48,320 nt of DNA from a bacterium (lineage in GTDB: Bacteria; Zhuqueibacterota; Zhuqueibacteria; Oceanimicrobiales; Oceanimicrobiaceae): NCBI GenBank assembly GCA_046757025.1, contig JBHHXN010000021.1:1-48320 (forward strand), written 5' to 3'. Each line of letters starts with the position of its first letter. Position 1 is the first letter of the stretch. Positions 3,660-26,055 of the stretch are shown here, in pieces. Position numbers and translations under genes: made by a program. The notes below the pieces were generated by a model. The model saw only the letters and a program-made list of their open reading frames with translations. It had not been told where the DNA came from and made no database searches.

Positions 3660-4213
3660 CAAATACGTCCTTAAAAGACTTAAGAAATTCATAGCATTTC
3701 CCCCATTAGCTTAATGAACTAGTGAAAAATTAAGTCAAAGCAATTCGCTTGGTAACTGATTTTCAAAGCAGGCAGTGCAAAGGTGTGAATCAGCGAGAAA
3801 TTTTTACATACGCCGGGAGTTGGAGATATGAATGAATAGACCACTGCTATCCCTCATTAAAATCGAACCAGGATACCTCCTCGCAGAAAATGTATCTGTT
3901 AAAAACCGCTCCTCATTTGTGTCGTTTTTAACATCGACTGCATTCAGGAAAAGTCTATTTTTGGTACCCCTATTAAATCGGATTCAACTGTTCAGGTAGA
4001 ATAAGAAATAATATCGCTGCTACACAGGGTAAGGCATCTTTCGAATTGGGAGACGAGAAATGTAAATTCGACTGCAAAACGTTTGTAAAAATTTAATGCG
4101 GTGCGGGATGTCGTTTCAACAAGCATTTAAATATTTTGGGCTTAATTGCAATTTTTACATGGTTTTGCCGGGATACCAATTGATTATTTAATGCACAATA
4201 TTTGATCCAGCAA

Positions 4214-4642: not shown

Positions 4643-7600
4643 CTAATTCGCTACAAATTTGTACACCGCCTCTGACTTTTGGAGATTTCGGTTGACCAAA
4701 AACAAATTCAAATCCGGTCCATAGTTTTCTACAAAAAAGCCGTAAAAGGTTCCTTCAGGAAGTTGGCGGTTGGCAGAAAGCGGACTGCCCAAATAATCGC
4801 CTCGCAAGTTTGCGATATGAACGCCATTTTGATCCGCGATAAAAAGATAGGTTTCCCTCTTGACCTTTTCTCCTTGAAAAATCAAACCCACCGCATCTTC
4901 CACCACTTGAATTCGGGTGGGAAATGAAAGTTTGATCGGTTGTCCTTCGTCTTTGTTGTAGTTGGTACCAAAGCTTCCAAAGGAGTTCAGCAGTTGGCCG
5001 CGGTTGTCGAGCTGATGAATCCGGTGATGGCCCCAGTCACACACATAAATCAGTCCGCTGGAATCCACGTCCACGCCTTCCGGGCTATTCAACTCCACAT
5101 TCAAAGCGAGTTTCCCCGTTCGTTCACTGCGCGCTGCGTTGGAATAAATCCAGATAGCGTTGTCTTCGGCATTCACAGCTAAAATGCGATCTCCCACCCC
5201 ATCGTACGCCATGTCGCGGATTTCCAGCCTGTTCACAAAATCGTGCAACAGGGGTGAATCAGGCAGTTGCTGCGGAATAGCCGCATCCATGATATAATTG
5301 CCATCCCATCGCCGTACCAGGGGCGTGCGCACATTCGCGGTGGCGGTTTTCAGGCCCGGCGGCGCGGGTTTGAATTGTATTTTTTTGTTCAGGATGACCA
5401 CGGCTTGATTTTCACCTGCTTTCGTAAATGGCAGCGGTTGTTTGTGAGCATAGCAATCGGGGTTGACGATCTCCAATTCCTGGATGGAGTTCAAAGGGAC
5501 GGATGTTTTTACATAAACGCCTTCCTTTTGTTCTAAAATTTCGTCGTCTAATTTCACCACCGTGCTCGAGTGAATGTTATGCGGCAACATCACCACTAAT
5601 TTTAAGCTTGACGACAACGGTCCCCGGATCTCATCGAGCAAATAAGGCAAGTTGGGTACGACATTTTCTGCTAGAAAAATGGAATATCGCAATCGATTGC
5701 GGGACGGATAAATGGCTTTTCTGGGCAGGCCAAATTTCATCAGCCAGTTGATATTTTCATAGGCGTATTGCTGCTGCAAATACTTTTCATCGGCGAGTTT
5801 TTCGTAGGTCAACTGATTCAAATCCAAAGCAGGTTTGAACTCCACATTTTCGATTTCCAACCCTTCCAGCCTCCTTAAATTACCTTTGTCGTTGGCAGCA
5901 GCTAAACCGGCGTTGGCATTGCTGAGCCAGTACTCGCCATAATGATCCGAAAAATTCTGCAGTTTGTCGATGATCACTTCGTAACAGCGTTTGGCGATTT
6001 TGCCTTTGTTGTTGAGACGGTAAATCTCTGCCAGATAAAACAAAGCCCGCAAATAATTGTGCTGTTTGATCAACGGTTGAAAGATCACACGCGCCTGGTC
6101 GAACTCATCGGCAAAAAACAAACATTTACCCCGGATGTAATCCGCTTCATTTTTATTGACGAAATCGGAGCTGATGGTGCTGAGAATCTGCGCGGCCTCC
6201 TTAAAGAGCTGGCTCTTTTCGTTCGGCACCGCCTGAATTTCCGCCTCGAACATTTTCACGATGCCGCGGAAAAAGCGCGTTTCGTTGCTTCTGCGAATAT
6301 TGGTAATTTCAAACAGCCGATTCAAGAGAATGATGTATTTTTCACGGGTGGCGCCGATATTTAAAGCCGCCCTGGGCAGAATAAACATGATGGTGCTGAT
6401 GGCTTGCTCCAGCTTTTCATTTTCGGTACCGTTCAACACATTCAACCAAATTTGAGCGGTATTGTTGGTCAAACTGACGTTGATCAACAGATCCAGCAAT
6501 TCCTGGCGTTTTTGAATGGCCTGACTCTGGGGGGAAAATTGCGCAATGTTTCTGGCCAGCGCATTCAAACGCGAGTAGTTGTTGGACAGATAATACGCTT
6601 CGAAATCCAGGAGATATTTACTGAAATAAGCATCTTCCAGTAAAATTTGCAGGCGATTGGTGAGCAGCCGTTTTTTCTCTACAGCCTCGATGAAGTTCAA
6701 AAAATTTCTACGGCTGTTCTGGTTTTGATTTTGAATCATTTGAATGTTTGCCAGCCAGTAAAACGATTCCGGCAGACTGCGGGAGGAGTCGTAGAAACTG
6801 ATGGCGTAACGATTAAAATCATCGCTTTCGATATCCGGATGGCTCTGATAAAGATTAGCGCGTCGAAACATCTTTTCAGGATGGTAGCTCGCATGGGCCA
6901 ATTTTCGCCAGGCATTCAAAAAGTCCGTGCGACTGCCGTCATCGCGATTGACGAAATAGAGATCGAGATATTTCATCATCTCAAAATAGGTGGCCGCGGA
7001 TCGAAATCCGGCGTGCAGATTGGATTTGCCGGCGAACATTTCAACAAACTTTTGATTATGCAAATAAAACGTAGCCGTTAGCGCCGCGCTGGCTTGCTTA
7101 TTGTCGTCCTTATAATTTTCTATGGATTCGGTGATCAGCCCTTGATAAAGCTTACTCATTTGATATTTCAACGATTCTTTTTGCAAAGCCGCGGCTGTTT
7201 GAATGTCACGTAAATTGTACGGAGACGAATCGTGGGGCTGCTGTGCGATGATGCTATCATAAAGCTGTGCAAGTGACTGATTAGATTTGATCAGCGCATT
7301 TATTTCAGTAACCTGAAAGTTGTAGTCCATGAGATTCAGGAGGCGTAAGGCATTTTCACGGAGTCGGCACTCTGCTGCCATGTATTTTGAAAAGGTCTGC
7401 AGCGAATCCGGAGCATCTGCTGGCAGGTCGGTGAATTCCTTAAAGGCACGCTGTAAGCTGACCTGCGTTTGTTCGCGCAATTCAGCCAAGCGGAAGGAAC
7501 ACCAACCTATTTTATATTTGGAAAAGTGAAAATATTCCCGAAAGTTGGTTTTAAGGTCGGAGCTGTTGTTGGCTTTGCTGAATTCCTGCCACGCATTCTG

Positions 7601-7864
7601 TAACAATTTCTTGATAGCTTCCGGCGTGCTTGCCGCAAACGCTTTGTTGTAAAAACATTCAGCCAAAAAATAGCGCGCCAGCCCCTCTTCATGGGGATTT
7701 TTCTGAATAAAATCCGGCACATAATAAGTGATCAACGAATCGTATTGTGCACGATTGTACATGTTGATGCCATCGATAAAATCCTGCCCCCGTCCATTTT
7801 GCTGAAAGCCAGCAAATAAAACAAACGTAAAAGTCGCATATTTCAAAAAAGGTAAAAAGCGCAT
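4643..7864 (-). CDS. Secreted/periplasmic TPR-like repeat protein with C-terminal NHL/beta-propeller domain (1073 aa)
   Basis: Signal peptide; TPR-like helices (ARYFLAECFY, ADYIRGKCLF, ALFYLAEIY); NHL motifs LNSPEGVDVDSSGLIYVCDWGHHRI and LSFPTRI. Confidence 0.85.
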   Translation of the reverse strand: MRFLPFLKYATFTFVLFAGFQQNGRGQDFIDGINMYNRAQYDSLITYYVPDFIQKNPHEEGLARYFLAECFYNKAFAASTPEAIKKLLQNAWQEFSKANNSSDLKTNFREYFHFSKYKIGWCSFRLAELREQTQVSLQRAFKEFTDLPADAPDSLQTFSKYMAAECRLRENALRLLNLMDYNFQVTEINALIKSNQSLAQLYDSIIAQQPHDSSPYNLRDIQTAAALQKESLKYQMSKLYQGLITESIENYKDDNKQASAALTATFYLHNQKFVEMFAGKSNLHAGFRSAATYFEMMKYLDLYFVNRDDGSRTDFLNAWRKLAHASYHPEKMFRRANLYQSHPDIESDDFNRYAISFYDSSRSLPESFYWLANIQMIQNQNQNSRRNFLNFIEAVEKKRLLTNRLQILLEDAYFSKYLLDFEAYYLSNNYSRLNALARNIAQFSPQSQAIQKRQELLDLLINVSLTNNTAQIWLNVLNGTENEKLEQAISTIMFILPRAALNIGATREKYIILLNRLFEITNIRRSNETRFFRGIVKMFEAEIQAVPNEKSQLFKEAAQILSTISSDFVNKNEADYIRGKCLFFADEFDQARVIFQPLIKQHNYLRALFYLAEIYRLNNKGKIAKRCYEVIIDKLQNFSDHYGEYWLSNANAGLAAANDKGNLRRLEGLEIENVEFKPALDLNQLTYEKLADEKYLQQQYAYENINWLMKFGLPRKAIYPSRNRLRYSIFLAENVVPNLPYLLDEIRGPLSSSLKLVVMLPHNIHSSTVVKLDDEILEQKEGVYVKTSVPLNSIQELEIVNPDCYAHKQPLPFTKAGENQAVVILNKKIQFKPAPPGLKTATANVRTPLVRRWDGNYIMDAAIPQQLPDSPLLHDFVNRLEIRDMAYDGVGDRILAVNAEDNAIWIYSNAARSERTGKLALNVELNSPEGVDVDSSGLIYVCDWGHHRIHQLDNRGQLLNSFGSFGTNYNKDEGQPIKLSFPTRIQVVEDAVGLIFQGEKVKRETYLFIADQNGVHIANLRGDYLGSPLSANRQLPEGTFYGFFVENYGPDLNLFLVNRNLQKSEAVYKFVAN

Positions 7865-7874
7865 AAGCCACCAT

Positions 7875-8468
7875 TTAATTGATTATCATGATATTGTTTC
7901 GGTCGATGCCTTCGAAGTGGTAAATCATGCCGTTTTCCAATTTATCTTTGCGGTCCACGTATTTCAAATTTCGTTTCAGCCCGCGCAAGTCGATTTGAAC
8001 TTTCATGTGCTCCATCTTGGTCGGCACGTTAAAATAATATTTGATAATTCCCTGTTTGTATTGCACAAATCTCCAGGATTCCATGACGCTTTTTATGTAC
8101 TGTCCGGCCTTGGGATGTCCTTTGTCGCGAATGGCGGTGATGGTGAAATTCCCTTCCACGTCTATAACGCCCAGTATCATCACGTCGGCACGGCGATCGA
8201 TTCTTTCCAAAAAATTCCAGTCCAACGGTTTGGGATAGAATTTAAAATCCAGTTGAAATTTAAGCACCTGAATGGGCGGTCCCACGATGCGAATACTTTG
8301 TGTGCCCGGCCGTTTGGGCACGGGAATCTCCTGCTGATCGATTTGTAATGGAATGCTCAATTCCGCGGCCGGCATCTGGCTGATTTGAAATTGCCGGTAA
8401 ACCAACAGCACGGCAAACAGCACGATGACGAAATAAAAGCCGTATCTCACAAGGTATTTAATATTCAT
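7875..8468 (-). CDS. Short TonB-like energy transducer (N-terminal TM, Pro-containing linker, TonB_C-like domain)
   Basis: Single N-terminal TM; segment VMILGVIDVEGNF..KGHP..VMESWRF resembles TonB C-terminal domains; directly downstream of exbB/exbD/exbD. Confidence 0.6.
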   Translation of the reverse strand: MNIKYLVRYGFYFVIVLFAVLLVYRQFQISQMPAAELSIPLQIDQQEIPVPKRPGTQSIRIVGPPIQVLKFQLDFKFYPKPLDWNFLERIDRRADVMILGVIDVEGNFTITAIRDKGHPKAGQYIKSVMESWRFVQYKQGIIKYYFNVPTKMEHMKVQIDLRGLKRNLKYVDRKDKLENGMIYHFEGIDRNNIMIIN

Positions 8469-8485
8469 GGTGTTTGGTCCGTTCT

Positions 8486-9049
8486 TTACAAATCGATTTG
8501 CAGAATGTTGCCGTCGATGGTGACTTTTTTACTGGCGAGGATATCTTCTATGTCGCCGGGTACGCAGCCGTATTCAAAAAAAGGATTGTCGATCAGATAT
8601 TCGATGATGTTGGTGGCGTAGTAAAACGGATACACGTTGGGGCAGCGGATCAAGATGAAGTGCTCTTTATTTCGAAATTTTTTAGAGAATTCAAACAAAT
8701 TTTTCAGCCGCGCCACCAGCTCGTCTTTGCTGATGGTCATTTTATCCAAAAGTAATTGGATTTTCGCCGCCGGATCGTTGGGATCGGGCAGCATGTAACT
8801 ATAATAATGGAGGGTATCTATGGCGGTATAGTCCAGCCAGAAATAATGATCTTTATCGATGATTTGAATGAGGATCTGCGCTTCGCCGGGCTCGTTGATA
8901 GGCGTTGGAATGTTGAGCCTGGCTTCGCCTTTGGACAGGTTGATCATCACGCTGGTGGTAATGAAAAACAGCAGCAGGATAAATATCAAATCGATCAAAG
9001 ACACCATGGGCACCTTGCGGTTTTCGATGAACAGTTTTTTAAAAGCCAT
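8486..9049 (-). CDS. exbD: ExbD/TolR family protein
   Basis: N-terminal VPMVSLIDLIFILLLFF with the conserved TM Asp. Confidence 0.85.
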   Translation of the reverse strand: MAFKKLFIENRKVPMVSLIDLIFILLLFFITTSVMINLSKGEARLNIPTPINEPGEAQILIQIIDKDHYFWLDYTAIDTLHYYSYMLPDPNDPAAKIQLLLDKMTISKDELVARLKNLFEFSKKFRNKEHFILIRCPNVYPFYYATNIIEYLIDNPFFEYGCVPGDIEDILASKKVTIDGNILQIDL

Positions 9050-9060
9050 CCTTCTGATTC

Positions 9061-9654
9061 CTATTTATGACTGGTACGGATGACGATTTGCGGAACGACG
9101 TCTTCGTGCAAGCTGCAGCGGTCCATGATATAGCTTAATATCTTAAACTCGGTATTTTTATCAGCCCGCAGTTCGATGACCGGTCGGGTATTTCCACGAA
9201 ACATTTTCTCGTATTCGATATAGCGGTCGATGGAGTTTGAAATCAAAGTACAGGGCGGAATGGCCTTAAATTCCATCTCCGGCATGTTCACAAAATTCAC
9301 TGGAAATGCGGCGAAAGTGGAGTCGGTGAGGGCTTTTTCAAAGGCATGGCCTCTGGATATTTTGGTGGTGTCGTGCAGGACCGGCCATAAAACGTAGGCT
9401 TTTTTAGCCGTCTGCAACTCGCTGGTGTCCGGAACGATCTGTATCATGAGATTTTCCAGCCAGTCATCCTTGATTTGCGGTAAGTTGGTCTTGGTCGTCG
9501 GCAAATCCATTTCAGAATGGACCTGCGATTCGGAAACGTCGCTGGCTAACGAAAATGCAAACGACACCAGAAAAAAGATCATCAACAAAAACACCACATC
9601 GATGAGCCCGGTCAATTCCAGGCTACGACTTTCATTTTCAAATTGCAGTGGCAT
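9061..9654 (-). CDS. exbD: ExbD/TolR family protein
   Basis: LELTGLIDVVFLLMIFF TM motif; C-terminal VIELRADKNTEF motif. Confidence 0.88.
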   Translation of the reverse strand: MPLQFENESRSLELTGLIDVVFLLMIFFLVSFAFSLASDVSESQVHSEMDLPTTKTNLPQIKDDWLENLMIQIVPDTSELQTAKKAYVLWPVLHDTTKISRGHAFEKALTDSTFAAFPVNFVNMPEMEFKAIPPCTLISNSIDRYIEYEKMFRGNTRPVIELRADKNTEFKILSYIMDRCSLHEDVVPQIVIRTSHK

Positions 9655-9700
9655 GCGGAATCATTCACTCAGATATTCATAACTGATTTCGACAAAGTAA

Positions 9701-11338
9701 TCAGAGTTTTTCCGTGATGGAAATATACACCTCTTCCCACTTGGCATAAATCCATTCCAGCTTATGCTTGAAATAATAGTAAACCAGAATAAAGATAATG
9801 CCGTTAGCCAGGCCAAAAATCGTCGTCCAGAGCGCTTCAAAAATGCCGCTACTCAATTGCTGAATGGTGTTCACAAAATCGGGACGAGCGGTGGTATTGG
9901 ACAGTTGTTGAAAGGCGTAAGTGATGCCGGTCACGGTGCCGAACAATCCCACCAGCGGCGCCAGCGCGCCGTAGTTCCAGAACCATTCAATTTTGGACTT
10001 TCTTCGCAAATTTTCGATCTCGATGGAAGCGCGGTTTTCGAAAGCGCTTTTTACTTCCTCAGATGGTTTGAGCCAGCGGTAACCGTTCATGCGGTGAATT
10101 TCCAGACCGGCGCGAATAATCTTGCTGGTTGGAAACGGATCCAGTCCTTTGCGCAGGTCAAAGATGCCTTTTTTCAAAATCCACTTGCGTATTCGGGCCA
10201 GCAGTTTGTCATCCTTGATCACCGGCTCATAAATTTCATCGATAATTTTGCTCATGTCGATCAAACTGCCGTTGGTGTGCTCGCCGTTGCCGTTTTTAGT
10301 GATCAAATCCTGAAAGCTGTCTTCAATCTTGATCACCAGCTCGGTGAGCAAATCATCCGGTTTTTTGCTGCCATTATGCTCGCCGTTTACGAATGGATAG
10401 GCGATGATGTCTTCGATGGTGCCGATGGCCTTATCGCCGTCGTTGGTCCAATATTCCAGGCAGGCCACGTCCACAGAGGCCATTTTTTCCGTGGCGCTCA
10501 AGCCCTGGGGTATGTTTTTGGTGGCCCTGTCCGCTACCATTCGACTCTTGATAGCGATGGTTTCCCAAGCTTTTAAAATAAATTTGAATTTGTTGGTCAG
10601 GCGGTTTTCATAGGTTTTATCGCAGCTCAATGAAAGCGACCAGAAGAAATTCCGTTTGGTTCTCCTGAAGGGAAAAATGTTTCCCAGATAGAGCGTGCGC
10701 GAGGAATAAAATATCAGCACCAGAAAACTCAAAACCGTTGATATCGACAAAAAGAGAAACGCCACTTTACCCAGCTCGGTTGATTTGTCATAGATTTCTG
10801 ATTTTCCTAGAATCATCAACTGCCAGCGGCCGGGATTTAAATAATAAGTCCAATTTTTGCCGGCCAGCACTGTGTATTGTCGCTTATTGCCCTTTCCGAC
10901 CACGATGGTTGCCGGCGCCGATTCGGCCACCAACATGGCGTTGGCAGAATATGCCCGCACCTTGAACACAAATTTTTTACCCACGGGTTTGTTCAAAAAA
11001 TCGGCGTAGTTCACCCCCGCTACCTTGCGCACGATGGGCCCGGTTTCTCCATCCCATTCAAACAAATAAACTTGAAAGGTCAGCGGCAATTCATCGGCGT
11101 CGTGTTGAATGACTTTCTCCACCCCGTTTCTAATGCTTTTTTCCTCTATCTTCCAGTGCAGCCGCAAATCCACTTCTTTTGGAATGAACAGCCAGTTTTT
11201 TTTCACTTTTAAATACGAAATATCTGAAATGGTAATCTCATAACTGGACTGTGCGGATACGGTCGTAGCCAAAATTGCAAAAAACAAAAAAATACTTCCC
11301 CGGATGTAGACGGTTATTTTCGCTATGGCTTTGTTCAT
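9701..11338 (-). CDS. MotA/TolQ/ExbB proton-channel protein with N-terminal exported FN3-like extension (545 aa)
   Basis: C-terminal APLVGLFGTVTGITYAF and GIFEALWTTIFGL motifs; N-terminal signal peptide, then a beta-rich domain (FVFKVRAYS). Confidence 0.88.
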   Translation of the reverse strand: MNKAIAKITVYIRGSIFLFFAILATTVSAQSSYEITISDISYLKVKKNWLFIPKEVDLRLHWKIEEKSIRNGVEKVIQHDADELPLTFQVYLFEWDGETGPIVRKVAGVNYADFLNKPVGKKFVFKVRAYSANAMLVAESAPATIVVGKGNKRQYTVLAGKNWTYYLNPGRWQLMILGKSEIYDKSTELGKVAFLFLSISTVLSFLVLIFYSSRTLYLGNIFPFRRTKRNFFWSLSLSCDKTYENRLTNKFKFILKAWETIAIKSRMVADRATKNIPQGLSATEKMASVDVACLEYWTNDGDKAIGTIEDIIAYPFVNGEHNGSKKPDDLLTELVIKIEDSFQDLITKNGNGEHTNGSLIDMSKIIDEIYEPVIKDDKLLARIRKWILKKGIFDLRKGLDPFPTSKIIRAGLEIHRMNGYRWLKPSEEVKSAFENRASIEIENLRRKSKIEWFWNYGALAPLVGLFGTVTGITYAFQQLSNTTARPDFVNTIQQLSSGIFEALWTTIFGLANGIIFILVYYYFKHKLEWIYAKWEEVYISITEKL

Positions 11339-11388
11339 GATAAATCACCTCAATTATTACAATAATATTCAATTTATCAAAAAGGACA

Positions 11389-13512
11389 CTAATAGTTGAA
11401 TGTGTAGGTTTCCTCTTTTAGTGCACCGTCTGAAATGGTTTTTGTATATGAATTGATCAACCTGCCTAAGAGATGATCGAGTTGTGCTGTGTTATGAGAT
11501 TCAAAAAAGTCTATCAATTCGTATAATGTGGCTTCGCCTTTGGTTAAAAATCGCGCCAGATCGGAATCCGGGAAAAAGCGTGGAATTTTGGCAAACTCGG
11601 CGAGGTAATCATTTGCACTGGATTGCTCAGCCGTTTTGTACAGGGTAATGGCCTTCAAAAAAAGCACTTCGTCTCCAAACAAGCAGTCTGAAGTCAAGGG
11701 CAAAAACACCGATTCTGGAAAATAGGTATCGTTGAGGTCGATTTCTTTTAGCTCAGTGAGAACCTCCTGAAAGTTATTTTCCACAAAGGCCATGTGCGCT
11801 GAGAAAAATCTTGCCAGCGACTTTTGGTTCAATTTTTCATGAATTAAGTTTCGAGCTTCAGCGGTATTGTGGTTGCGAAACAGCGCAAATGCCTGTAGAT
11901 AATCCACCACTTCTTCCCGCGCGGCAAGCTTGGTACCTGCTAAATCTTCAATGACGTTGATGCGCTTGCCCCAGCTCTGGCCATAATTTTTGCACAAGTT
12001 CATGGCCTGCAGATAATCGCCGGTCAAAATCAGTGACTGTACATAATAGACAAACGATTTGAAATAAGCCTGGCGGTCGTATTCGCTTTTGGTATAATCT
12101 TCAAACAGACTCTTGGATGCGTCCGCCGTGTACAGGATTTTGGTTTTTTTGAATTTTTTGATGGCATTCACCGGGTTCATGATCTCGGCGCTTTTCGCGT
12201 TGCGTAGTACGCTGATGGCGTGCAAAAATTCCATATCGGCCCGCCGCAGGGTCGCTTCATATCTGAATGCGCGTTTATCGGGATTTTTCGCACGTTCGGC
12301 ATTTTTCAAATACTGAATCAGTTTGAGATTGTCGCTGAAAGTCGGCAAATTTTCACACTCGGTGCTAGTAAATTCCGACATACCTTTGAGATACCAGTAG
12401 CGGGCGGTAAAAGGATTGTGATCCACGGAGATGGAGTAACGCGAGCCCACGGCGTCATAAGCGCTCCTTTCTTTGCCGTAAGTGACATCACCGGAGGGCA
12501 CCCAATCGCGGCCCAGCATAATTTCCGGGCTGATGTTGACACCGATGGTAAAAGACTCGTAGTTGGAATTGGCGCCCAGTCGCAGCTTCAGAGGTACATG
12601 CGAGCTAATGACGGACAGATCGTATTCTAACCCGAACATGACGTCGCGGTCACGACCTGGCGGACGCTGAAAACCGTAATCCATGGAAAGCAACAAACCG
12701 CGTAAAATCCCCACGTGTGGCAGGATTGACAATCCCAGAACCCCGGTAGCGGGGATGGGGTCGCTGACTGCCTTTGCACCATAAGAAATACTGGATCCGG
12801 TTAGATCGCGAAGCGTTAAACCCAGGTTGAAAATGCCGGAATTGTGCGTGTATTTTACGCCCAAATCGAAGCTGCTGGCGCTGCCGTTGGCGCCAAACAC
12901 ATCTTGCTGGATGAATTTGGCGGTGACGCCCATATTGATATCGCCACGCAGATATTTCAGAATGCCGGTGGGCGCAACCTGCTTAAATAATCTCGTTAAA
13001 GGATAAGAAACGGAAAAGTATATGGCCGATTGACTGACGGTATTTTCGCTTTGATCCAGGGGCTGCGAAGTATCTTTGTTATAAATCTCGAATTCACCCA
13101 GAGAATGCCACAACAATCCCGCGCCAATGTTGAAATCCTGAATGAAATTGACAAAGGCGTTCTGACTGCTGGCGTTGATAAAAAACAAGCGCAACGGAAC
13201 CGCGCCAGCCAGATAATTGAACGAGGCGCCCTCTTGCAGCGGAATGTGCATGAACATGAAGGAGCCGCCTATACGCGAAAGCGCAGACAACCCGGCGGGA
13301 TTCCAGTACAGGGCGCTGGCGTCATCCGAAATCGACGTGAAAGCCCGGCCCATTCCCAAGGCTTTGGCGCCCACTCCCCAGCGCAAAAATTCTCCTGCCT
13401 GACCCGCGTAATCCTGCGCCGGCAAACGGCTGAACATGAACAATGGAGCAATTATTAAGATCAGGTATGTTCGTTTTCGCATGCTAAAATCCTGTTTGGC
13501 CTGATGATTCAT
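11389..13512 (-). CDS. PorV/PorQ-family outer-membrane barrel with ~340-aa helical C-terminal extension; alternative start at 13482
   Basis: Signature FLRWGVGAKALGMGRAFTSISDDASALYWNPAGL; amphipathic beta strands; TAATG overlap with the upstream gene; AGGA RBS before MRKRTY. Confidence 0.8.
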   Translation of the reverse strand: MNHQAKQDFSMRKRTYLILIIAPLFMFSRLPAQDYAGQAGEFLRWGVGAKALGMGRAFTSISDDASALYWNPAGLSALSRIGGSFMFMHIPLQEGASFNYLAGAVPLRLFFINASSQNAFVNFIQDFNIGAGLLWHSLGEFEIYNKDTSQPLDQSENTVSQSAIYFSVSYPLTRLFKQVAPTGILKYLRGDINMGVTAKFIQQDVFGANGSASSFDLGVKYTHNSGIFNLGLTLRDLTGSSISYGAKAVSDPIPATGVLGLSILPHVGILRGLLLSMDYGFQRPPGRDRDVMFGLEYDLSVISSHVPLKLRLGANSNYESFTIGVNISPEIMLGRDWVPSGDVTYGKERSAYDAVGSRYSISVDHNPFTARYWYLKGMSEFTSTECENLPTFSDNLKLIQYLKNAERAKNPDKRAFRYEATLRRADMEFLHAISVLRNAKSAEIMNPVNAIKKFKKTKILYTADASKSLFEDYTKSEYDRQAYFKSFVYYVQSLILTGDYLQAMNLCKNYGQSWGKRINVIEDLAGTKLAAREEVVDYLQAFALFRNHNTAEARNLIHEKLNQKSLARFFSAHMAFVENNFQEVLTELKEIDLNDTYFPESVFLPLTSDCLFGDEVLFLKAITLYKTAEQSSANDYLAEFAKIPRFFPDSDLARFLTKGEATLYELIDFFESHNTAQLDHLLGRLINSYTKTISDGALKEETYTFNY

Positions 13513-16502
13513 TAAGGTTGCTGCTTTTTGACGCCGATTTTAAATCGCTTTTGAGTTTTGGTGCCCACGCAAATGTAACCACCGCTGGCTACCCAGTCGC
13601 CGTTTCCGTTGCGTCCATCCCAGACGAAATCATGTGTATTCGCTTTTTCCGACACCGTGCGTACCAGATTACCAAAAAAATCGTAAATTTTGATTTCCGT
13701 TTCCGTACTCTCAGCAAATCGAATGGTGATTTTATCATTCAACGGATTAAATGGATTGGGAAAAGCAAACAAGCTGGTAAAGCTTTCCTGTAAAAAAACA
13801 ACCACTGAAGCCGGTTCGCTGAGATTTTCAGCTCCGTCTTGCACCTGCACAATGAGCTCCACTCGCGCCGGTTGTTTTTTTTGAGTTTGAATTTCATAGT
13901 CAACCGTTTCGTTAAGCTGCGCTGCAGAATCTGCCGCATTCCACACCAAACTCACAATGCCGTTTTCGCTGATTTCATATTGCCAAATTTCACCCGGCGG
14001 GGTATCATGTGCGACGATCTGCACCTTGACATTTCTGTCGTTTGTCCAAAGTTGATTGTTTAAAGGATCCGCACCGGGCAGCAAAACATCGTCGATGACG
14101 GGTCGGGTGTTATCCTGGATAGACACGACGGTATCGGAAAACACCTTCCGCAATTGCGTGTCCATTCCAACAATCCAGTAAACGTTCCGCTGTCCGTCCG
14201 CTAAATTCTGAAAAAGATGACAGCTCACACCAGCGGGAGGGTTCGTCACCAGAACGGAATCCTCTGCGGTAAAATCGCCGTTCTCATCTCGAAACAATTT
14301 CAAAGAAGTCAACAAGCCCGAAGCTTCCCAGCAAATTTCCCGGGACAAGCCGGCGGAAAATTCGGGCAGGGCATCCATTTTAATACTCAAAACACCGACA
14401 TAATCACAAACGCTCTCTCCCCCTTCGGTCTGCACGTTGCCTAAAAAATCAAAAGGTAGCACCCGATAGGAGAAGCGATTCGATGACGTGGCCGCTGAGA
14501 AAAGATCGTCGTATTGAACGGCATTCACATCCAGCTCGGCGATCAAATTATTGTCTCTAAGCACTCGATAGCCGGCTAACCCGCTGCAACCCTCCGGCTC
14601 CACGGCCGGACTCCAGCTCAGATGAATGCCGTTGGCATTGAGAAGCTGCTCGCACTTCAGATCGGTCACCGCAGCGGGAGGCGTCGTATCCAAAGTCAGA
14701 GTTATGGGCTGCGAAGTGCGGCTGTTTTCAGCGCCGTCAAAAATGTTCACCACAAGCTCGATGGGGGCGCACGCGGCGGAAATGAGCTCAACGAACAACG
14801 TGGTATCAACTGTATTGGTGATCTGATTCAACGACACCTCTTTATTCAAGAATCCATTTTCCAGGATGGCAATTCTCTTAATTTCGCCCGGACTGGTATC
14901 CCGGGCCTGGATGCGCAAATTGAGCAGTCGGTTCGTCGTCCAATTGTCGCCATTAAAACTGACTGTGTTCAACACCTTCACGGAATCGATTGCTGGCGAA
15001 ATCGCATCCTGAATAGAGAACACGGTGTCGGAAAACACGCTGCGCTGCAGTCGATCCACCGCAGTCACCCAGTAGCAGTATTTCACACCGTCTTCCAGAT
15101 TTGGAAACGTAAAACACGTGTCGCTCACGGTCTGCATTTCGGCCTGAACAAAGTCACAATCCCTGGCCATAAAAACCGAGTACGAATCGATGAGGTCGGA
15201 TCCACGCCAACAGACCCGATTGCTTTTGCCCTGAGTAAACTTCGGTTCTGCATGCATGAAAATTTGCGACACCGGTCTGAAAACACAGGAGGCCGTGCCA
15301 CCCGTTAGCTGAATGTTTGCCAGCGAATCAAACGGTTGCACCTGGTAGCGATAAACCACTTCCGATTGCGTGGCAGACAGGGTGTCGATAAACTGGGTTT
15401 GTGAAGCTTCGACAATCGCGATGAGCGTTTCGTTTCTAAAAATGTGATAACCGGCCAATCCGATTCCCGGAGCGGCGTCAGTGGATTTTGTCCAATTCAA
15501 TTGAACGGTATTTTCTATCTGTTCACAATTCAAGCTCACGCTCGCGGGCGGTGTGGTATCGATTTGTATTTTGATCTGTGCCGGGCTATCGACCGCCGGC
15601 GTCCCGCCGTTACCAGCCAGCTCAAAATGCGGAAAACGGCTCTCCGGTGTGTGCGCGGCGTCCCTTCCTTCGATGCGAAATTCATAACAACCGTCGGCTA
15701 AATTTTGTGTGAAAGCGATTTCGACCGATTCGGCAAATTCAAAACCTGAATCGGTTAATCTGCCCGGATAAGTCGTATCCAAGGTCACTTGTTGCCAGTT
15801 TGCGGATTCGCAATTGCGTCGGAACAGGAAACCCTGCCAGACTCCGGCTGCGTCAAGCAACCGGGCACGTAATTCGAATGTCGATTGATTCCACCATCCT
15901 GCCACGGCTGACGACTGCAATTGTGGAATTCGAACATTCTCAACCCGCGGCGGCTCAGAGTCCTGAATCGACCAGATCGAATCCTCGTATGCGCTGCAAT
16001 GCAGTTGAAGCTGACTGCTGTCGGTTACGGTCTCGCAATTGATGGTGCACACGGGCACAAACAAAGCGGTGGTAAAAGTGTATTTTTTTCCGTTCTCCAG
16101 CGAACCGATGACGTCTTTTTTGGTGGAGTCGTTTTCCAAATTCACCGGTTTTGGAAATTTTAAAGGAGACTCCCCGCTTCCATCCAATACCTGGGTAATC
16201 ACAAACGGATTCAACGCAAACTCGGCGGGTAACGGCAGATCAGCTAAAGTCGGCAGATTAAAATAAATGAAATTGGTCGCTCCCTGGGTATATCTGGGTT
16301 CCGTGAACATGCCCGGAGCGGATAAGTCCTGCGTGCAGTTTTTCGTGCTCAGCCTTTGAATCAAGGCCAAAAGCCTTTGCTGGCGGCGCACTTCCGCTTC
16401 CGCGCCCCTTTGGGCCTGCGCCACACCTCCGCTCAAAATAGAGGTAGTCAGGCACCAGATAGAAATTGTCCAGAGTTTTCTAATCAAATCCCACCACTCC
16501 AA
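13512..16502 (-). CDS. Secreted FN3/Ig-repeat protein with C-terminal FlgD-Ig/T9SS-CTD-like domain (996 aa)
   Basis: Signal peptide (TTG start); about three internal repeats (EPRYTQG/EPKFTQG/LPEFSAG, SIQD, DTTPP); C-terminus AFPNPFNP..IKIYDFFGNLVR..WDGRNGNGDWVASGGY. Confidence 0.88.
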   Translation of the reverse strand: MEWWDLIRKLWTISIWCLTTSILSGGVAQAQRGAEAEVRRQQRLLALIQRLSTKNCTQDLSAPGMFTEPRYTQGATNFIYFNLPTLADLPLPAEFALNPFVITQVLDGSGESPLKFPKPVNLENDSTKKDVIGSLENGKKYTFTTALFVPVCTINCETVTDSSQLQLHCSAYEDSIWSIQDSEPPRVENVRIPQLQSSAVAGWWNQSTFELRARLLDAAGVWQGFLFRRNCESANWQQVTLDTTYPGRLTDSGFEFAESVEIAFTQNLADGCYEFRIEGRDAAHTPESRFPHFELAGNGGTPAVDSPAQIKIQIDTTPPASVSLNCEQIENTVQLNWTKSTDAAPGIGLAGYHIFRNETLIAIVEASQTQFIDTLSATQSEVVYRYQVQPFDSLANIQLTGGTASCVFRPVSQIFMHAEPKFTQGKSNRVCWRGSDLIDSYSVFMARDCDFVQAEMQTVSDTCFTFPNLEDGVKYCYWVTAVDRLQRSVFSDTVFSIQDAISPAIDSVKVLNTVSFNGDNWTTNRLLNLRIQARDTSPGEIKRIAILENGFLNKEVSLNQITNTVDTTLFVELISAACAPIELVVNIFDGAENSRTSQPITLTLDTTPPAAVTDLKCEQLLNANGIHLSWSPAVEPEGCSGLAGYRVLRDNNLIAELDVNAVQYDDLFSAATSSNRFSYRVLPFDFLGNVQTEGGESVCDYVGVLSIKMDALPEFSAGLSREICWEASGLLTSLKLFRDENGDFTAEDSVLVTNPPAGVSCHLFQNLADGQRNVYWIVGMDTQLRKVFSDTVVSIQDNTRPVIDDVLLPGADPLNNQLWTNDRNVKVQIVAHDTPPGEIWQYEISENGIVSLVWNAADSAAQLNETVDYEIQTQKKQPARVELIVQVQDGAENLSEPASVVVFLQESFTSLFAFPNPFNPLNDKITIRFAESTETEIKIYDFFGNLVRTVSEKANTHDFVWDGRNGNGDWVASGGYICVGTKTQKRFKIGVKKQQP

Positions 16503-16529
16503 AAGAATTTAACGTCCAAAGTCACAACA

Positions 16530-19500
16530 TTATTTTAACAACAACATCCTTTGTGATGAAACAAAATCCTTTACGCGCATGCGGTACACATAAAGGCCGT
16601 TTCCAACCACCGTGCCTCTATCGTCGCGGCCATCCCAGACCACGCGGTGTTCTCCAGCCGGTTTTTCATCCTGCACCAGAGTTCGGATCTTCTGGCCGGT
16701 GAGGTTGAAGATTTCGATTTCAACTTTTACCGTACCCGAGCTAACCGCAGGTATGGCATATTTAATCGTGGTCGTCGGATTAAACGGATTGGGATAATTT
16801 TGCTTTAAAGCAAATTGCTCGGGAATATTGGCAGCTTCGTTGGACTCCACTTCCGTCACATTGGTTCCGGTATTTAACTGGCAGAAGAATAAATCCGACC
16901 AGGCGCTATCGAAAGAATTGACCCGTGTTTTAATCCGCCAGTAAATACCCTCCCAGGGCACTTTAAAATTCGTACATTGATCTGTCAACGGGCCAATGAA
17001 GACATTGGTGATAGGGCTGCCAAACAGTTCCACAAATCGTGCACCTTCCAGGAAATAAACCATTTCACTTGCCGGCGCGGTTGACTGTCCCGAACTCCAG
17101 CAAAACGTGGTGTCATCCAAACACCAACCGGAATCAGGCGGGCTGATCATGAATGGCACGCTGCCGGCTTTCGCCAAAGTCTGGCGGTTCATCAGGCTGT
17201 CCACCGCGTGTACCTGCCACTGTAAGTTTAAAAAATTGTCATTGATTTTCACCCGACGGTCAACAAATTTATACACATCAGCGCGGCTACTGTCTCTGGC
17301 CAGAACTTCCTCGTCGCGGGTAATTTCATAGTACCAGGTGCCACTGCAATTGTCATCAACCGCGATCCAACTCAGGTGCACGTTGACCTCTCCCGGCGCA
17401 CCAAAGTCGGGTGCCGCGGTGGAATCGACCATGCTGGTCACGATAGCCGGCGGCAAGGCATCGTAGTGACCGGAAATCGCCCCCAGTTGCGGGTAGTCTG
17501 TTGACCATGGTGACAGATGCTGCCAGCGGTCCTGCGCTCGAATTCGGGCATAAACCACTTCATTTTGCACGCTTGCGAAGGGAAAATCCGGCATCCAATG
17601 AAAAGTGTGTCTTCGACTAAAACCCAACTTTTTGGTACTTTTGTTAAAATTAAAATCGGGATCGATACTCAGCTCAATGACCAGACTGTCGGCGCCAAAA
17701 TTATCGGCTACTATCGACAAATTTTCATCCACCCACGACCAGACCAGCTCCAAACTATCGCGAAAACAGGAAGGCTTCACTTCCAGCAACTTCGGTGTAA
17801 ACACCCAGAATGGCTTGAAGTGCGCATCCTGTACCGTGATGGTATTTGAACGCTGCTGCAAAAAATCAATAGCCGTAACCGTAAAAGAATAGATTTTTGA
17901 GATATCAAATCCCCGTATCAGCAACGTATCTACATCGACCACTTTTGTAGAATCTAAAATCATTTTTGACCCCTTTTCTGACCACTGCACCAAAAACGTG
18001 TTCACCGCTTCCTCGGAATAGCCCTGCCATGACAGAAAAATATCCCCGGATGCAGTACCCGGCGGAACCGGCAGAGCCTGCACGTCAAACGCTACCGGTT
18101 CGGGTAAATTGTCCAGCGGCACCACTAAAAACGGCGCAGGATGGCTGATAAATTGCTCGGCACATCCCTGCCCGGTATCTCCCAACAAAATTTCCCGAAC
18201 CTGGAAATAATAATTGTGCCCGGAAAAGGCATTAAATAAAGTGTAGTCTGTTTTATTAAAAAGCGTATCCACCTGCACCGGCGCGGAATCGGTAACGTCT
18301 TTAAAAACCAACATTTCGACGTAGAAGTCATCGGTGCCGGGCAATCTCGGTGAAGGGCGATTCCAAAACACCTTAATGTTATTTTGGTCGATTTCCGTTT
18401 GGTCTTTCGTGAATTCCGGCGCACGATTGGAAAATTGGCCGACGATGGGATTGACCAGAGAAATCAAGTTGAAACAATCCCGCGCTTGCACCAAATAATT
18501 GTTGCACTCATAAGCACGCAGGGAATGCTTTTCAAATTCGTGCCGCCATTGCAAGCTGTCACCGGGAAGCACCGCAGCCGGCGTCTCTGGCTGGGGTGCC
18601 CCTTGCGGCCAGGTGAAAATCCGATATTCCACAATTTCCAAACTATCGGGATGGGTCCAGGAAAGCAGGATGTCGCCCGTGGGCGCAGATTCGTGTACCG
18701 CAGTCAGGTTTTGAACTCCCGCCAGCGACGCCTTCTTTCGAAAGGTAATGGTGTTGGAAAAAATCGTGGAATCGCCGTTGACATAAAACGCCCGCATACG
18801 CAAACGGTAGATGCCATCCCCGCCATCGATGGGACAATCGAAAGTTTGATTAACCGGAGCACTTATCAACTTACGGTTTTGGGATCCGTCCGGATTGACT
18901 ATTTCAATTTCATACCCCTGCACATTTTCGCTGTTGAATCCGGGCCAGGCAAAGGACAGGGTATCGCGGTTGATTCCTAAAATATCGCTGGAACAGAAAA
19001 GGGTGTTGGAAGAATCCGGGAAAATACGCGGCCCCACCAACGCTCTGATTGCGACTTCCTGGTCGGAATCGACCAGGGAGCGAGCGTTGCCCACCCGATC
19101 CATGGCGCTGATTTTGTAGTGAAAGATTTGATTGACCCCGATGGCAGACAAAGCGTCACAGTAGGAGGTCTCTGCCCCTGAAATAGTATCGACAGCGCTG
19201 AAACTGGCTCCGCCGTCGCCACTGCGATAAACAATATAGGAACTCAGACCGGACACCTCATCGAAGGCCGGCAGCCAGCTCAAGTCAACACAGCCATCTT
19301 CCCCGCCGTCAAAAATGCGCGGACGTGCGGTTAAATTGTGGATATCCGAGGGCGGGAAAAAATCTTGTATGGCGGAAACCGTGTCCGACCAGATGCTGAT
19401 ATTTCCAAACCGATCTTTTCCAGCGGCCCGATAATAATATTTAACGCCGCTCACAAAATTTGGATCTTTTGCCGGGGGCAGCAGATCAAATTCGTAACTG

Positions 19501-21206
19501 AAACTTTCTGGTAAATCAGACAGGCTGAGCCAGCCGGAATCGAACACGTTCACCTGCTCATCCTGCTTCTGGTGGATGCCAAACAGCTCGGTGTTTTCAC
19601 GCACGGCCTGAAAACGCAGCGAATCCGTGCTACGGAAGCCGAGACACTCAATCTGCGATTTTGGATTTTGTACGCGTATCGTATTTTTGACTCCCCTGGC
19701 AAATCGCTGGCCGCGGTCGTTTTCAAACACAAACCAATCCGTGATGATGGGTTTACATTTCCCGTGCAAATCCAAAATTATCGGCGATGAGTCGCTGCCT
19801 TCGCTTGTGTTGCCGGCCGCATCCGCTGCGTGGATTTTATAGTGAAACGTCTCTAAGTCGTGCACCTCTCCTAACGTGTCCGTATATTGGATAGATTCTC
19901 CCTGAGCAAACGGGAATAACTCTTCCACAGGTTTCACAAAGACCGCGTACATATCCGGAACCGCGTTGATGATGCTCGCCCCCACCGCAAAATTACCACC
20001 CAGGGTGACTTCGCCGGCGGCAAACACGTTTCGGCTTTTGTAGAGCTCCATCTGGCCGCGGGAAGTACGCAGATTGCGGCGGAACAAAATGAAGTTTCTC
20101 GCCAGCCATTCTGGTTTGGACTTGAAGCGTTTGTCCAGGGCAATATATATAAAGGACGAGGCGTTTAAACGAAAAGTGAGAAAATTCTCTTGTTCGCGCC
20201 AGCGGTCTTTAATGGATGTTTTCAGCAAAGCAGACCGCTTTATTTCCTGGGGCAAAAAAACAAATTTTAAATCGCCATCCAAATACAGCGATTCACGGGC
20301 TTCCAGCAGCACGGGAAAATAATTTTTCGGTGAAATGTCGGAGACTGGGAAAAATGGTAGGGTGTCAATGGCGGTGTACGCTTGCACGGTTTTATTGCGG
20401 CGAAACAAAATATATTTTTCGATATAACCGAGTTCGTCCGGTTGATGCGGCCACTGTATGGTCACTTCTCCGTCGGCGCTGACGGTAAACTGTTCAACCG
20501 TGACTGCGGGCGGCGGCAGGTTGTCTTGAGTCGAGTAAGTGGTGTCGGAATGCAAAGTCACAAACCTGTCATTGTTAAAAATAGTGGCCTCAACAAAATA
20601 GCCGTAGCGAATGCCGTCCGTGAGATTTTCTACTACATGGCACTGCTGGTCGGTAAAAGTGGCCAACCGTTGCGGGCTGCCTGAAGATTTCCCTGAACCG
20701 GTTGCGGGAAACTGAAACAGCTCCTGACGGAGGGCGTTGCAATTCGTCCAGCATATCGTGTTGGACTCACCGGGCGTGAACGGCGGTTCCTGGGTTATTT
20801 TGGGCACGACTTTAATGGTCATCTTTTTTTCTACTTTTAAAAAGCCTGTAGGCCCGGATAATTGGGCTGCTATAATAAAGGAAAAGATTCCACAATTTTC
20901 AGAAGTTGGTATTAACGTCAGGGTGTCGCTAACCGAACAAACGGGAACACAGGAAATACTTTTTGAATCCCAATTAAAGGCAAAAGGCGGGACAGTTGGT
21001 TTGATTTTTAGGGATAAGACACCAGAAATTTTCGATTGGGCGGAAACGATAACATGGATAATCTCGCCTGGACTAATTCTATTATTTTGATTTCCACTAA
21101 CATTCAGAATGAGATCCGCTTCTTCCAATTCAGCAAAAGCCGTCAAATTACCAATAAGTAAAATTGACAGCACTGCTACACATTTCATTAACTTCCGTAA
21201 GTCCAT
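16530..21206 (-). CDS. Giant secreted FN3/Ig-repeat protein with C-terminal FlgD-Ig/T9SS type A-like sorting domain (1558 aa)
   Basis: Signal peptide; multiple FN3-like YxxxAxDxxGN motifs; C-terminus LKQNYPNPFNPTTTIKY..WDGRDDRG..GLYVYRM..RMLLLK; GAGGAG RBS. Confidence 0.92.
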   Translation of the reverse strand: MDLRKLMKCVAVLSILLIGNLTAFAELEEADLILNVSGNQNNRISPGEIIHVIVSAQSKISGVLSLKIKPTVPPFAFNWDSKSISCVPVCSVSDTLTLIPTSENCGIFSFIIAAQLSGPTGFLKVEKKMTIKVVPKITQEPPFTPGESNTICWTNCNALRQELFQFPATGSGKSSGSPQRLATFTDQQCHVVENLTDGIRYGYFVEATIFNNDRFVTLHSDTTYSTQDNLPPPAVTVEQFTVSADGEVTIQWPHQPDELGYIEKYILFRRNKTVQAYTAIDTLPFFPVSDISPKNYFPVLLEARESLYLDGDLKFVFLPQEIKRSALLKTSIKDRWREQENFLTFRLNASSFIYIALDKRFKSKPEWLARNFILFRRNLRTSRGQMELYKSRNVFAAGEVTLGGNFAVGASIINAVPDMYAVFVKPVEELFPFAQGESIQYTDTLGEVHDLETFHYKIHAADAAGNTSEGSDSSPIILDLHGKCKPIITDWFVFENDRGQRFARGVKNTIRVQNPKSQIECLGFRSTDSLRFQAVRENTELFGIHQKQDEQVNVFDSGWLSLSDLPESFSYEFDLLPPAKDPNFVSGVKYYYRAAGKDRFGNISIWSDTVSAIQDFFPPSDIHNLTARPRIFDGGEDGCVDLSWLPAFDEVSGLSSYIVYRSGDGGASFSAVDTISGAETSYCDALSAIGVNQIFHYKISAMDRVGNARSLVDSDQEVAIRALVGPRIFPDSSNTLFCSSDILGINRDTLSFAWPGFNSENVQGYEIEIVNPDGSQNRKLISAPVNQTFDCPIDGGDGIYRLRMRAFYVNGDSTIFSNTITFRKKASLAGVQNLTAVHESAPTGDILLSWTHPDSLEIVEYRIFTWPQGAPQPETPAAVLPGDSLQWRHEFEKHSLRAYECNNYLVQARDCFNLISLVNPIVGQFSNRAPEFTKDQTEIDQNNIKVFWNRPSPRLPGTDDFYVEMLVFKDVTDSAPVQVDTLFNKTDYTLFNAFSGHNYYFQVREILLGDTGQGCAEQFISHPAPFLVVPLDNLPEPVAFDVQALPVPPGTASGDIFLSWQGYSEEAVNTFLVQWSEKGSKMILDSTKVVDVDTLLIRGFDISKIYSFTVTAIDFLQQRSNTITVQDAHFKPFWVFTPKLLEVKPSCFRDSLELVWSWVDENLSIVADNFGADSLVIELSIDPDFNFNKSTKKLGFSRRHTFHWMPDFPFASVQNEVVYARIRAQDRWQHLSPWSTDYPQLGAISGHYDALPPAIVTSMVDSTAAPDFGAPGEVNVHLSWIAVDDNCSGTWYYEITRDEEVLARDSSRADVYKFVDRRVKINDNFLNLQWQVHAVDSLMNRQTLAKAGSVPFMISPPDSGWCLDDTTFCWSSGQSTAPASEMVYFLEGARFVELFGSPITNVFIGPLTDQCTNFKVPWEGIYWRIKTRVNSFDSAWSDLFFCQLNTGTNVTEVESNEAANIPEQFALKQNYPNPFNPTTTIKYAIPAVSSGTVKVEIEIFNLTGQKIRTLVQDEKPAGEHRVVWDGRDDRGTVVGNGLYVYRMRVKDFVSSQRMLLLK

Positions 21207-25000: not shown

Positions 25001-25009
25001 GAGGCGATC

Positions 25010-25588
25010 ATGAACAAAGTTGAAGTCATTTCAATGATGACGTTTATTTTCTTTATTTATTTTATCCTGGCGATTTTTATCGAAAGGGTAATCGAAATTC
25101 TGGTGACCTTCTTTAAATATTTTGAATTTAAATGGAATAAGTACGAAGTCTGGAATCGCAAAGCCCGGAAATACCAGCAAAAATTTGAGCGCTTGTACGG
25201 CATGCAGGCCGACCCGGCAGACAGCAAAGCCAACCTGTTTAGCTGGATCAAATGGAAGGTGCTCACCGAAAAACCCTACCCGGGCGGAAAAGAGATCATT
25301 TCAGCGGAGCTGATTCGCATGAATTTCATCCGCATGGCCAGCCGCATCGTGGCGTTTTTGCTGGCGCTGGGATTCGTGGTGATCTTGAATCTCGACATCA
25401 TCGCCATTGTCGAAAACCTGCTGCCGGATGTGAAAATTCTTCGGGCGGTGACCAACATCGAAATGATCAGAATTCTGCTGACGGCAGCCTTGATTTCCAT
25501 CGGGTCGGAGCCGCTGCATGAAGTCATCAGCTACATTGAAAAAATTGAAAAGCGCAAAAAAGCCCGTGCGAAAGGAGGGGGACAATGA
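25010..25588 (+). CDS. 3-TM membrane protein, paralogous to the N-terminal domain of the amidase; holin-like
   Basis: LAIFIERVIEIL matches LSLVVERLMAIL, and LLTAALISIGSEPLHEVI matches VITGVIIGAGSKPVNFLM; basic C-terminal tail; GGAGG RBS. Confidence 0.75.
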   Translation: MNKVEVISMMTFIFFIYFILAIFIERVIEILVTFFKYFEFKWNKYEVWNRKARKYQQKFERLYGMQADPADSKANLFSWIKWKVLTEKPYPGGKEIISAELIRMNFIRMASRIVAFLLALGFVVILNLDIIAIVENLLPDVKILRAVTNIEMIRILLTAALISIGSEPLHEVISYIEKIEKRKKARAKGGGQ

Positions 25589-26037: not shown

Positions 26038-26055
26038 ACCAATTTGGAGAACATT

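Follow-up and report, generated by a model that had tools for sequence, protein, structure and literature searches.

In Bacteroidota's type IX secretion system (T9SS), the GldLM motor and the GldK/N track are needed to eject carrier barrels and to move them. Work on Flavobacterium indicates that energy ejects carrier and cargo from the SprA translocon and that the same chain moves carrier-anchored adhesins (PMC10994853), with force reaching the dedicated carriers of Bacteroidota via a periplasmic tail (PMC12635249, PMC10994853). [quoted passage not shown] A different motor, the Agl-Glt core complex (AglR, AglQ, AglS, GltG, GltC/D/E), combines in one operon one TolQ-type protein, two different TolR-type proteins, a TonB-like single-pass protein and a large tetratricopeptide repeat (TPR) protein (PMC3169522). 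Here we describe a locus that resembles both, found in a 48,320-nt stretch of DNA (the window) that is the whole of contig C21 (JBHHXN010000021.1) of a 5.96-Mb, 94.8% complete genome from an uncultured bacterium of the phylum here called KSB1. Eight genes place two surface proteins and a PorV-fold barrel beside an ExbB-ExbD-ExbD motor, a putative force transducer and a TPR-NHL protein, and together they form an envelope module that is real, conserved and, it appears, undescribed. We propose, with a probability of about one half, that the module acts as a private energy chain of the Ton/Agl type: its motor would pull on the barrel and, by way of it, on the surface protein predicted to be held there.

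Organization of the locus and comparison with described systems

The module consists of eight minus-strand open reading frames (ORFs) running from 21206 down to 4643, with lengths of 1558, 996, 707, 545, 197, 187, 197 and 1073 aa. They are listed here in that order, followed by two further features:

16530..21206, minus strand: cargo A, 1558 aa; an FN3/Ig-type body between a predicted signal peptide and a canonical type-A-like CTD (about residues 1465-1558)
13512..16502, minus strand: cargo B, 996 aa; predicted signal peptide, three FN3-like repeat copies, atypical CTD
11389..13512, minus strand: PorV-fold barrel, 707 aa; plug 33-82, 14-strand barrel about 83-365, helical TPR-like tail about 370-706
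9701..11338, minus strand: ExbB/TolQ-type subunit, 545 aa; PF01618, 77 bits
9061..9654, minus strand: ExbD/TolR-type subunit 1, 197 aa; PF02472, transmembrane Asp
8486..9049, minus strand: ExbD/TolR-type subunit 2, 187 aa; PF02472, transmembrane Asp, of a family distinct from subunit 1
7875..8468, minus strand: putative force transducer, 197 aa; single transmembrane helix 5-23, D-box-like strand 54-65, possible TonB_C-like domain about 91-146
4643..7864, minus strand: TPR-NHL adaptor, 1073 aa, predicted periplasmic; TPR solenoid 30-711, linker 712-750, beta-sandwich 752-833, NHL propeller about 830-1073
3..3692, minus strand: cargo C, cut by the contig end; 35% identity to cargo A over 976 aa
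21519..21547, minus strand: sigma-70-like promoter candidate TTGACT-17-TATATT; 10/12 matches, about 310 bp upstream of the cargo A gene

As in the T9SS carrier-cargo pairs, a cargo gene here precedes the gene of its own barrel, and the likeness to SprF- and PorQ-type pairs extends to an atypical, probably retained CTD and to a periplasmic C-terminal extension of the barrel, a possible route for force or anchoring. Unlike the SprF pairs, however, the module has a barrel of PorV rather than PorP/SprF fold, the extension is a 340-aa TPR domain without a conserved cysteine, and the co-encoded motor is of the ExbBD type rather than GldLM with its GldK/N track. The Agl-Glt core complex shares the subunit composition and, in one class of module loci, an optional gene for a small outer-membrane barrel-like protein, but the transducer matches neither GltG nor the AgmX/PglI tail (proteins of loci C7 and C33 of the same genome do), a single TPR-NHL protein stands in for GltC/D/E, and the whole is linked to a T9SS-type barrel and cargo. 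The composition recognized as Agl-Glt-like in a preliminary description of the locus is thus present, whereas homology to GltG or to GltC/D/E gains no NCBIfam match.

With Ton systems the module has in common the proton-path residues of ExbB and ExbD and a D-box-like strand after the membrane anchor of the transducer; it differs in that the locus lacks a receptor, the transducer has neither an SHLS motif nor a long proline-rich arm, the two ExbDs are unlike each other and ExbB is 445-560 aa long. Motor, transducer, periplasmic propeller and TPR domains recall Tol-Pal and PorE, but there is no Pal/OmpA domain or lipoprotein, the propeller is of the NHL type and fused to a 680-aa TPR solenoid, and the genome has its own Tol-Pal. 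By these comparisons the module falls outside the canonical Ton, Tol-Pal and Agl-Glt systems, and cargo B outside the type B substrates; by analogy, its working may resemble that of a dedicated carrier pair of the T9SS coupled to a motor of the Agl-Glt-core type.

Family scans of the eight proteins gave matches above cut-off for MotA_ExbB, for both ExbDs and for NHL, and a weak one for TPR_6. They found no TonB-dependent receptor, TolB or Pal in the locus, as the preliminary description had claimed, nor were any found in 60 related stretches, which were searched for receptors by BLAST with three receptors of the source genome. The same description held that the eight genes share a strand with gaps of at most 50 bp and one overlap, and ORF positions and measured spacings (27, -1, 50, 46, 11, 17 and 10 bp) bear this out; such spacing suggests co-transcription. 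For the single promoter that had been proposed, there is one sigma-70-like match at 21547-21519, but such matches are common in the region (40 observed against 26 expected in shuffled sequence).

Conservation in the KSB1 phylum

Gene order was examined in those 60 stretches, which come from 55 genomes spanning more than one class and were picked by a match to ExbB or to TPR-NHL. Fifty-two were informative, with the barrel (or its tail) and TPR-NHL both visible; the remaining eight are either truncated at a contig end or have TPR-NHL as a solitary gene. In 49 of the 52 the barrel comes first and is followed, after at most two additional genes, by one or two ExbBs, the two ExbDs, the TonB-like gene and TPR-NHL, a count that is conditional on the ExbB/TPR-NHL selection and drawn from relatives that are not independent, and synteny across KSB1 relatives, which the preliminary description had named as a check, thus holds. 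The exceptions are two loci with an insert before TPR-NHL and one with an unrecognized transducer.

Among 167 genomes of the phylum, the TPR-NHL marker occurs in 63 and the TonB-like marker in 60. The former was present in 16/20 genomes of the window's family and 37/42 in other classes, and in none of families f4, f7, f8, f10, f11 and f12. In four genomes the module is doubled, the two copies having diverged (L038-L039, L088-L089, L096 with L165, L153 with L164), and one doubled module is in tandem and starts with a paralogue of cargo A, like the window gene at 3-3692. A further gene of some 360 aa, with an FN3-like domain and, as read by eye from the alignment, a probable small barrel, is present in one class. 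The homologues bear KSB1 and ‘Calditrichaeota’ labels only, and a metagenome scan with the ExbB alignment returned generic ExbB matches only. Among cluster representatives, matches to NHL repeats dominated the result for TPR-NHL. The module is present both with and without flagellin, which gives no exclusion signal for motility.

Barrel and surface proteins

The structure model of the barrel (pLDDT 81.7) has an N-terminal plug, 14 strands and an all-helical tail of about 340 residues from residue 370. Since the number of strands is even, the tail would face the periplasm, as outer-membrane barrel topology predicts. In a Foldseek search with this model the PorV chains 8gl6_F and 6h3i_F, from two T9SS structures, rank first (TM-score by target 0.59-0.62) and FadL follows (E 4e-8 against 1e-5); on the question of whether the barrel models as a FadL-type transporter, its fold is thus nearer to PorV. 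The cysteine motif through which the tails of SprF and PorG bond to GldK has no counterpart in this tail, where no alignment column has a cysteine in more than 11 of 36 rows. Other PorV-like barrels of the source genome also carry tails, namely TPR (C10:61911-67986), OmpA plus CARDB (C84:5918-13284) and SH3 (C6:65568-67478), and the gene of the TPR-tailed barrel on C10 is followed by one for a SpoIIE/HATPase signalling protein.

The two surface proteins had both been described as cargoes ending in PNPFNP..WDG..GxY sorting-like domains. CTD-like tails do occur on both, but cargo B terminates in GGYIC rather than GxY[VF]Y, and the two are not equivalent: of the pair, only cargo B ends in an atypical tail resembling that of PorZ, as proteins paired with a barrel typically do, cargo A being ordinary in this respect. 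The CTD of cargo A passes TIGR04183 (26.6 bits, cut-off 23), as a type A substrate should, and the protein is likely exported via the housekeeping SprA/PorV route. That of cargo B falls under every T9SS-CTD cut-off, including those of the type B models (TIGR04131, 19.2 against 35; PF13585, 18.5 against 27), and passes only Pfam FlgD_ig, which the tail of cargo A passes too; its closest match is the tail of PorZ (E 1e-11).

A survey of the source genome places cargo B in a wider group. The genome encodes 185 proteins with a C-terminal CTD and 25 PorV-like barrels, and 12 of the 172 CTD proteins with a known downstream gene are directly followed by a barrel gene. On a profile built from the genome's common CTD, all 12 barrel-paired proteins score between 19 and 78, against a median of 113 for the 160 unpaired ones, 16 of which fall below 80 (p = 6e-8). 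Cargo B, at 43, belongs with the paired group and cargo A, at 118.5, with the common one. Across module loci, an atypical-CTD gene lies immediately upstream of the barrel gene in 45/47 cases (with a 1-bp overlap in the window), and the bodies of these partners range from about 360 to 2177 aa. Gene position and CTD type together suggest that cargo B is the cognate partner of the barrel.

Cargo A and cargo B are nevertheless conserved partners, and not interchangeable substrates, with a private FN3-like repeat. This repeat is shared with cargo C and found in no other gene among the 5509 called in the genome, and because of this restriction the three proteins resemble parts of one structure. The cargo C gene is a ninth gene that lies beyond the eight-gene span, from 3692 to the contig end and 950 bp downstream of the module; it has its own promoter-like site (4242-4214), and its product is the 35%-identical paralogue of the 1558-aa protein. 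Family scans found no catalytic domain in cargo A, and its inserted domain (285-435), which has no sequence match in the PDB, may be akin to a carbohydrate-binding module.

On contigs C16, C29 and C60 (L142, L143, L145) a TonB-dependent receptor, an atypical-CTD protein and a PorV-like barrel stand together as a triad, which suggests that there a barrel tethers a surface partner of a transporter.

Motor, transducer and TPR-NHL adaptor

ExbB is the most conserved gene of the module, with a median identity of 63% within the family. Its product is extended at the N-terminus, carries a long conserved insert behind the first helix and keeps both channel threonine motifs intact. The transmembrane Asp is present in 105/105 ExbD copies (99 by pattern, six by reading the sequence), and the module thus has the residues of a Ton-type proton path, the ExbB threonines and the ExbD aspartate.

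Strand 54-65 of the transducer is proline-flanked and conserved, and compared with the D-box pattern from PMC10907165 it fits by eye at 6/7 positions, with a weaker fit in other classes. About 65 residues separate the helix from the TonB_C-like domain, which is short for a periplasm-spanning arm. Neither the family scans, including NCBIfam GltG and the AgmX/PglI tail, nor a PDB profile search gave a match for this 197-aa protein.

The TPR-NHL protein was modelled at a pLDDT of 85, with a linker (712-750) that is conserved but poorly modelled. A lipobox was found in 0/36 homologues, and the family scan found neither an OmpA domain nor a CTD. SprE (8gl8_I) appeared among its TPR matches and was set aside as showing only generic TPR likeness (root-mean-square deviation 21.9 Å).

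T9SS components and other motors elsewhere in the genomes

The locus had been described as a candidate dedicated secretion or surface-assembly system. A self-contained secretion system it is not: it contains no translocon, and SprA, PorU (844 bits, cut-off 420) and PorV proper are encoded elsewhere in the genome, the best PorV candidate reaching 303 bits with the PorV_fam model and 240 with the PorV model (cut-off 250). SprA is present in 163/167 phylum genomes. On the accompanying question of whether the relatives have PorL and PorM, GldL and GldM were each above cut-off in 0/167 genomes, in a search that had no positive-control genome, so that absence is not proven. The proposal of an ExbBD-TonB motor in place of PorLM does not hold if read as a phylum-wide substitution, since whole SprA-bearing families lack the module. 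At 15 ExbB loci of four SprA-bearing genomes that are 95-100% complete, neither the module nor the sister operon described below was found, in a set that leaves out one weak match and a fifth searched genome. The module is accessory, and not a general T9SS motor, because SprA-bearing genomes and families do without it. Also present in the source genome are a complete Tol-Pal (contig C97), two sets of ExbBD-TonB, two loci of the GltG type and some 21 ORFs that resemble receptors, so the motor of the module is not needed for Tol, Ton or Glt jobs.

A sister operon in the source genome (C15:13168-23890, L127) encodes a CHU_C cargo, a PorP/SprF barrel with a 300-aa tail, an extended ExbB, two ExbDs, a 352-aa protein, a TPR protein and a 236-aa protein. 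Its ExbB occurs in 62/167 genomes, and of 20 loci that were fetched 17 have the barrel clustered with it; the operon is frequent in families f6, f8 and f10, where the module of the window is mostly missing. The 352-aa protein belongs to no known family and has no detectable relation to the TonB-like protein of the module.

Several further motor loci were noted. Two loci that resemble the Agl-Glt core, at C33:21402-27813 and C7:17596-28230 (L128, L129), encode GltG/AgmX-PglI-tail proteins together with giant TPR proteins; such loci were also seen in three relatives. A cluster conserved in three families (C3:24047-34585, L315, L323) consists of a CTD protein (in two of the three), two PorV-family barrels, two genes, ExbB, two ExbDs and TonB; its ExbB shows 73-75% identity, it is absent from two f11 genomes checked, and it is a candidate housekeeping energizer. 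In f6 loci (L107-L112, 6/6) a single gene separates sprA from a downstream exbB-exbD(-tonB-like) run. We rejected this linkage as a general feature, as it was seen in 6 of 20 SprA loci, all in f6, and in 0/14 in other families. Another motor cluster recurs in genomes without the module and the sister operon (L311, L312, L317, L321): a TPR protein some 1000 aa long, a protein of 560-610 aa, ExbB, ExbD (which in L312 was not picked) and a protein of 270-295 aa. A MotA/MotB-like pair lies amid TPR genes at C25:31869-37023, in a genome without a flagellin match.

Next to the module in the window, a TrkA-domain potassium channel gene lies upstream on the same strand (22193-23212), and a gene of like size and ends occupies its position in several genomes of the same family. 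On the plus strand follows a four-gene run (23687-26613) of an Amidase_2 protein and then three proteins without a family above cut-off.

Discussion

From the observed genes and their order, predicted folds, motor residues, CTD classes and distribution we infer every contact and the output in the following proposal. As in the known T9SS pathway, both cargoes would be carried over the inner membrane by Sec and then exit through SprA, the translocon whose gene lies outside the locus. Cargo B would be taken up by the module barrel and stay bound via its uncleaved tail, as gene pairing and CTD type suggest, while cargo A would follow the general PorV/PorU route and probably join cargo B outside. 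The ExbB-ExbD1-ExbD2 motor, which at the sequence level retains its proton-conducting residues, may then pass force from the two ExbDs to the short TonB-like protein, on to the TPR-NHL adaptor and finally to the barrel tail. The TonB-like protein itself is too short to span the periplasm, and the adaptor stands between it and the tail in this scheme. The output, which is the least certain step, would be tension on, or movement of, the displayed adhesin-like complex, and release from SprA could be the first stroke of the same pull.

Several observations weigh against the proposed energy chain. The preliminary description had assigned the barrel to the PorV/PorQ family, and although PorV is nearest by fold, its sequence score on PorV_fam (NF033709) is 70.3 bits and does not reach the cut-off of 90. 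The TonB-like assignment of the transducer is weak: Atlas features point to TonB_C (0.92, with only 118/256 shared), but the HHalign probability is 16%, and 0/36 homologues match the Pfam TonB models or have an SHLS motif in the helix. No ring or track proteins were recognized in the source genome, where GldN gave no match and GldK at best 79 bits against a cut-off of 350, again with no positive control. Eleven further CTD-barrel pairs and some 160 ordinary CTD proteins have no adjacent motor of this kind, so that export here needs no private motor. The conditional nature of the synteny count counts on the same side.

The alternative that survives best, though we consider it unlikely, is that the motor serves biogenesis only, extracting the loaded barrel from SprA and assembling cargo A and B into a static surface structure that undergoes no later movement. 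In its favour, the phylum has no recognizable GldLM, and the repeat private to cargo A and B is what subunits of one structure might share. However, the other barrel-cargo pairs of the genome have no motor beside them, SprA-bearing families exist without the module, and cargo B in one class is only about 360 aa and hardly in need of special extraction. Action after export is thus favoured over extraction alone, because other pairs manage without such a motor.

It is improbable that the locus serves energized uptake or surface sensing, in which the surface proteins would capture a ligand and the motor would open the barrel plug, or the tail would report binding inward. In favour of this, the barrel belongs to the FadL superfamily and has an N-terminal plug, three loci of the genome have a cargo-barrel pair beside a TonB-dependent receptor, and a SpoIIE/HATPase signalling protein follows one TPR-tailed barrel; but by fold the barrel of the module is nearer PorV than FadL, the operon has no conserved catabolic enzyme, inner-membrane transporter or regulator, and the genome has its receptor-like ORFs and separate ExbBD-TonB sets. 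We also see little likelihood in a Tol-like role in envelope maintenance, with an outer-membrane tether or remodelling device of which the surface proteins are passengers. Its appeal lies in the TPR, Ig-like and propeller parts of the adaptor, which are the ingredients of PorE, a proposed outer-membrane tether (PMC12204202), and in the OmpA or SH3 tails of other barrels in the genome; against it stand the complete Tol-Pal set elsewhere, the patchy occurrence of the module in the phylum, and an adaptor with neither lipobox nor OmpA domain. Finally, a general PorLM substitute powering all T9SS export in the phylum might be sought where SprA is nearly universal, GldL and GldM score nowhere above cut-off and one genome has 185 CTD proteins, but with the module in only 60-63 of 167 genomes, not found in several families (f7, f8, f10, f11, f12), and with neither module nor sister at the 15 ExbB loci, this is already disfavoured and very improbable.

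For a private chain of this kind, our literature searches, in which few subscription papers were covered, brought up no paper on an ExbBD motor coupled with a barrel of the PorV type. PMC12204202 reports further unusual transducers, encoded next to TPR, TolQ and a pair of TolR genes, this one not among them in the parts seen, and SprA has already been reported across the Fibrobacterota-Chlorobiota-Bacteroidota (FCB) phyla (PMC12611786).

Two separate operons, the module and its sister, put a Ton/Agl-type motor beside a tailed carrier barrel, in a phylum where translocon, carriers, sortase and, per genome, some 185 cargoes are retained without recognizable GldLM. A bolder and doubtful extension is that KSB1 has a third surface conveyor, in which T9SS-delivered, barrel-anchored adhesins would be moved by a TolQR/AglQRS-type motor rather than GldLM, built twice independently with PorV-fold and PorP/SprF barrels. 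If so, the T9SS translocon and carriers would work without the energy chain of Bacteroidota and couple to interchangeable motors, which would challenge the proposal of a T9SS origin within the Gld gliding machine. Provided that the coupling is real, the locus names the parts of an undescribed trans-envelope machine and a receptor-less output for the 5:2 proton motor. It makes testable how T9SS-type export and surface display are energized outside Bacteroidota, and the gene content of KSB1 would provide a test of the origin of T9SS within gliding machinery that has been inferred (PMC12635249).

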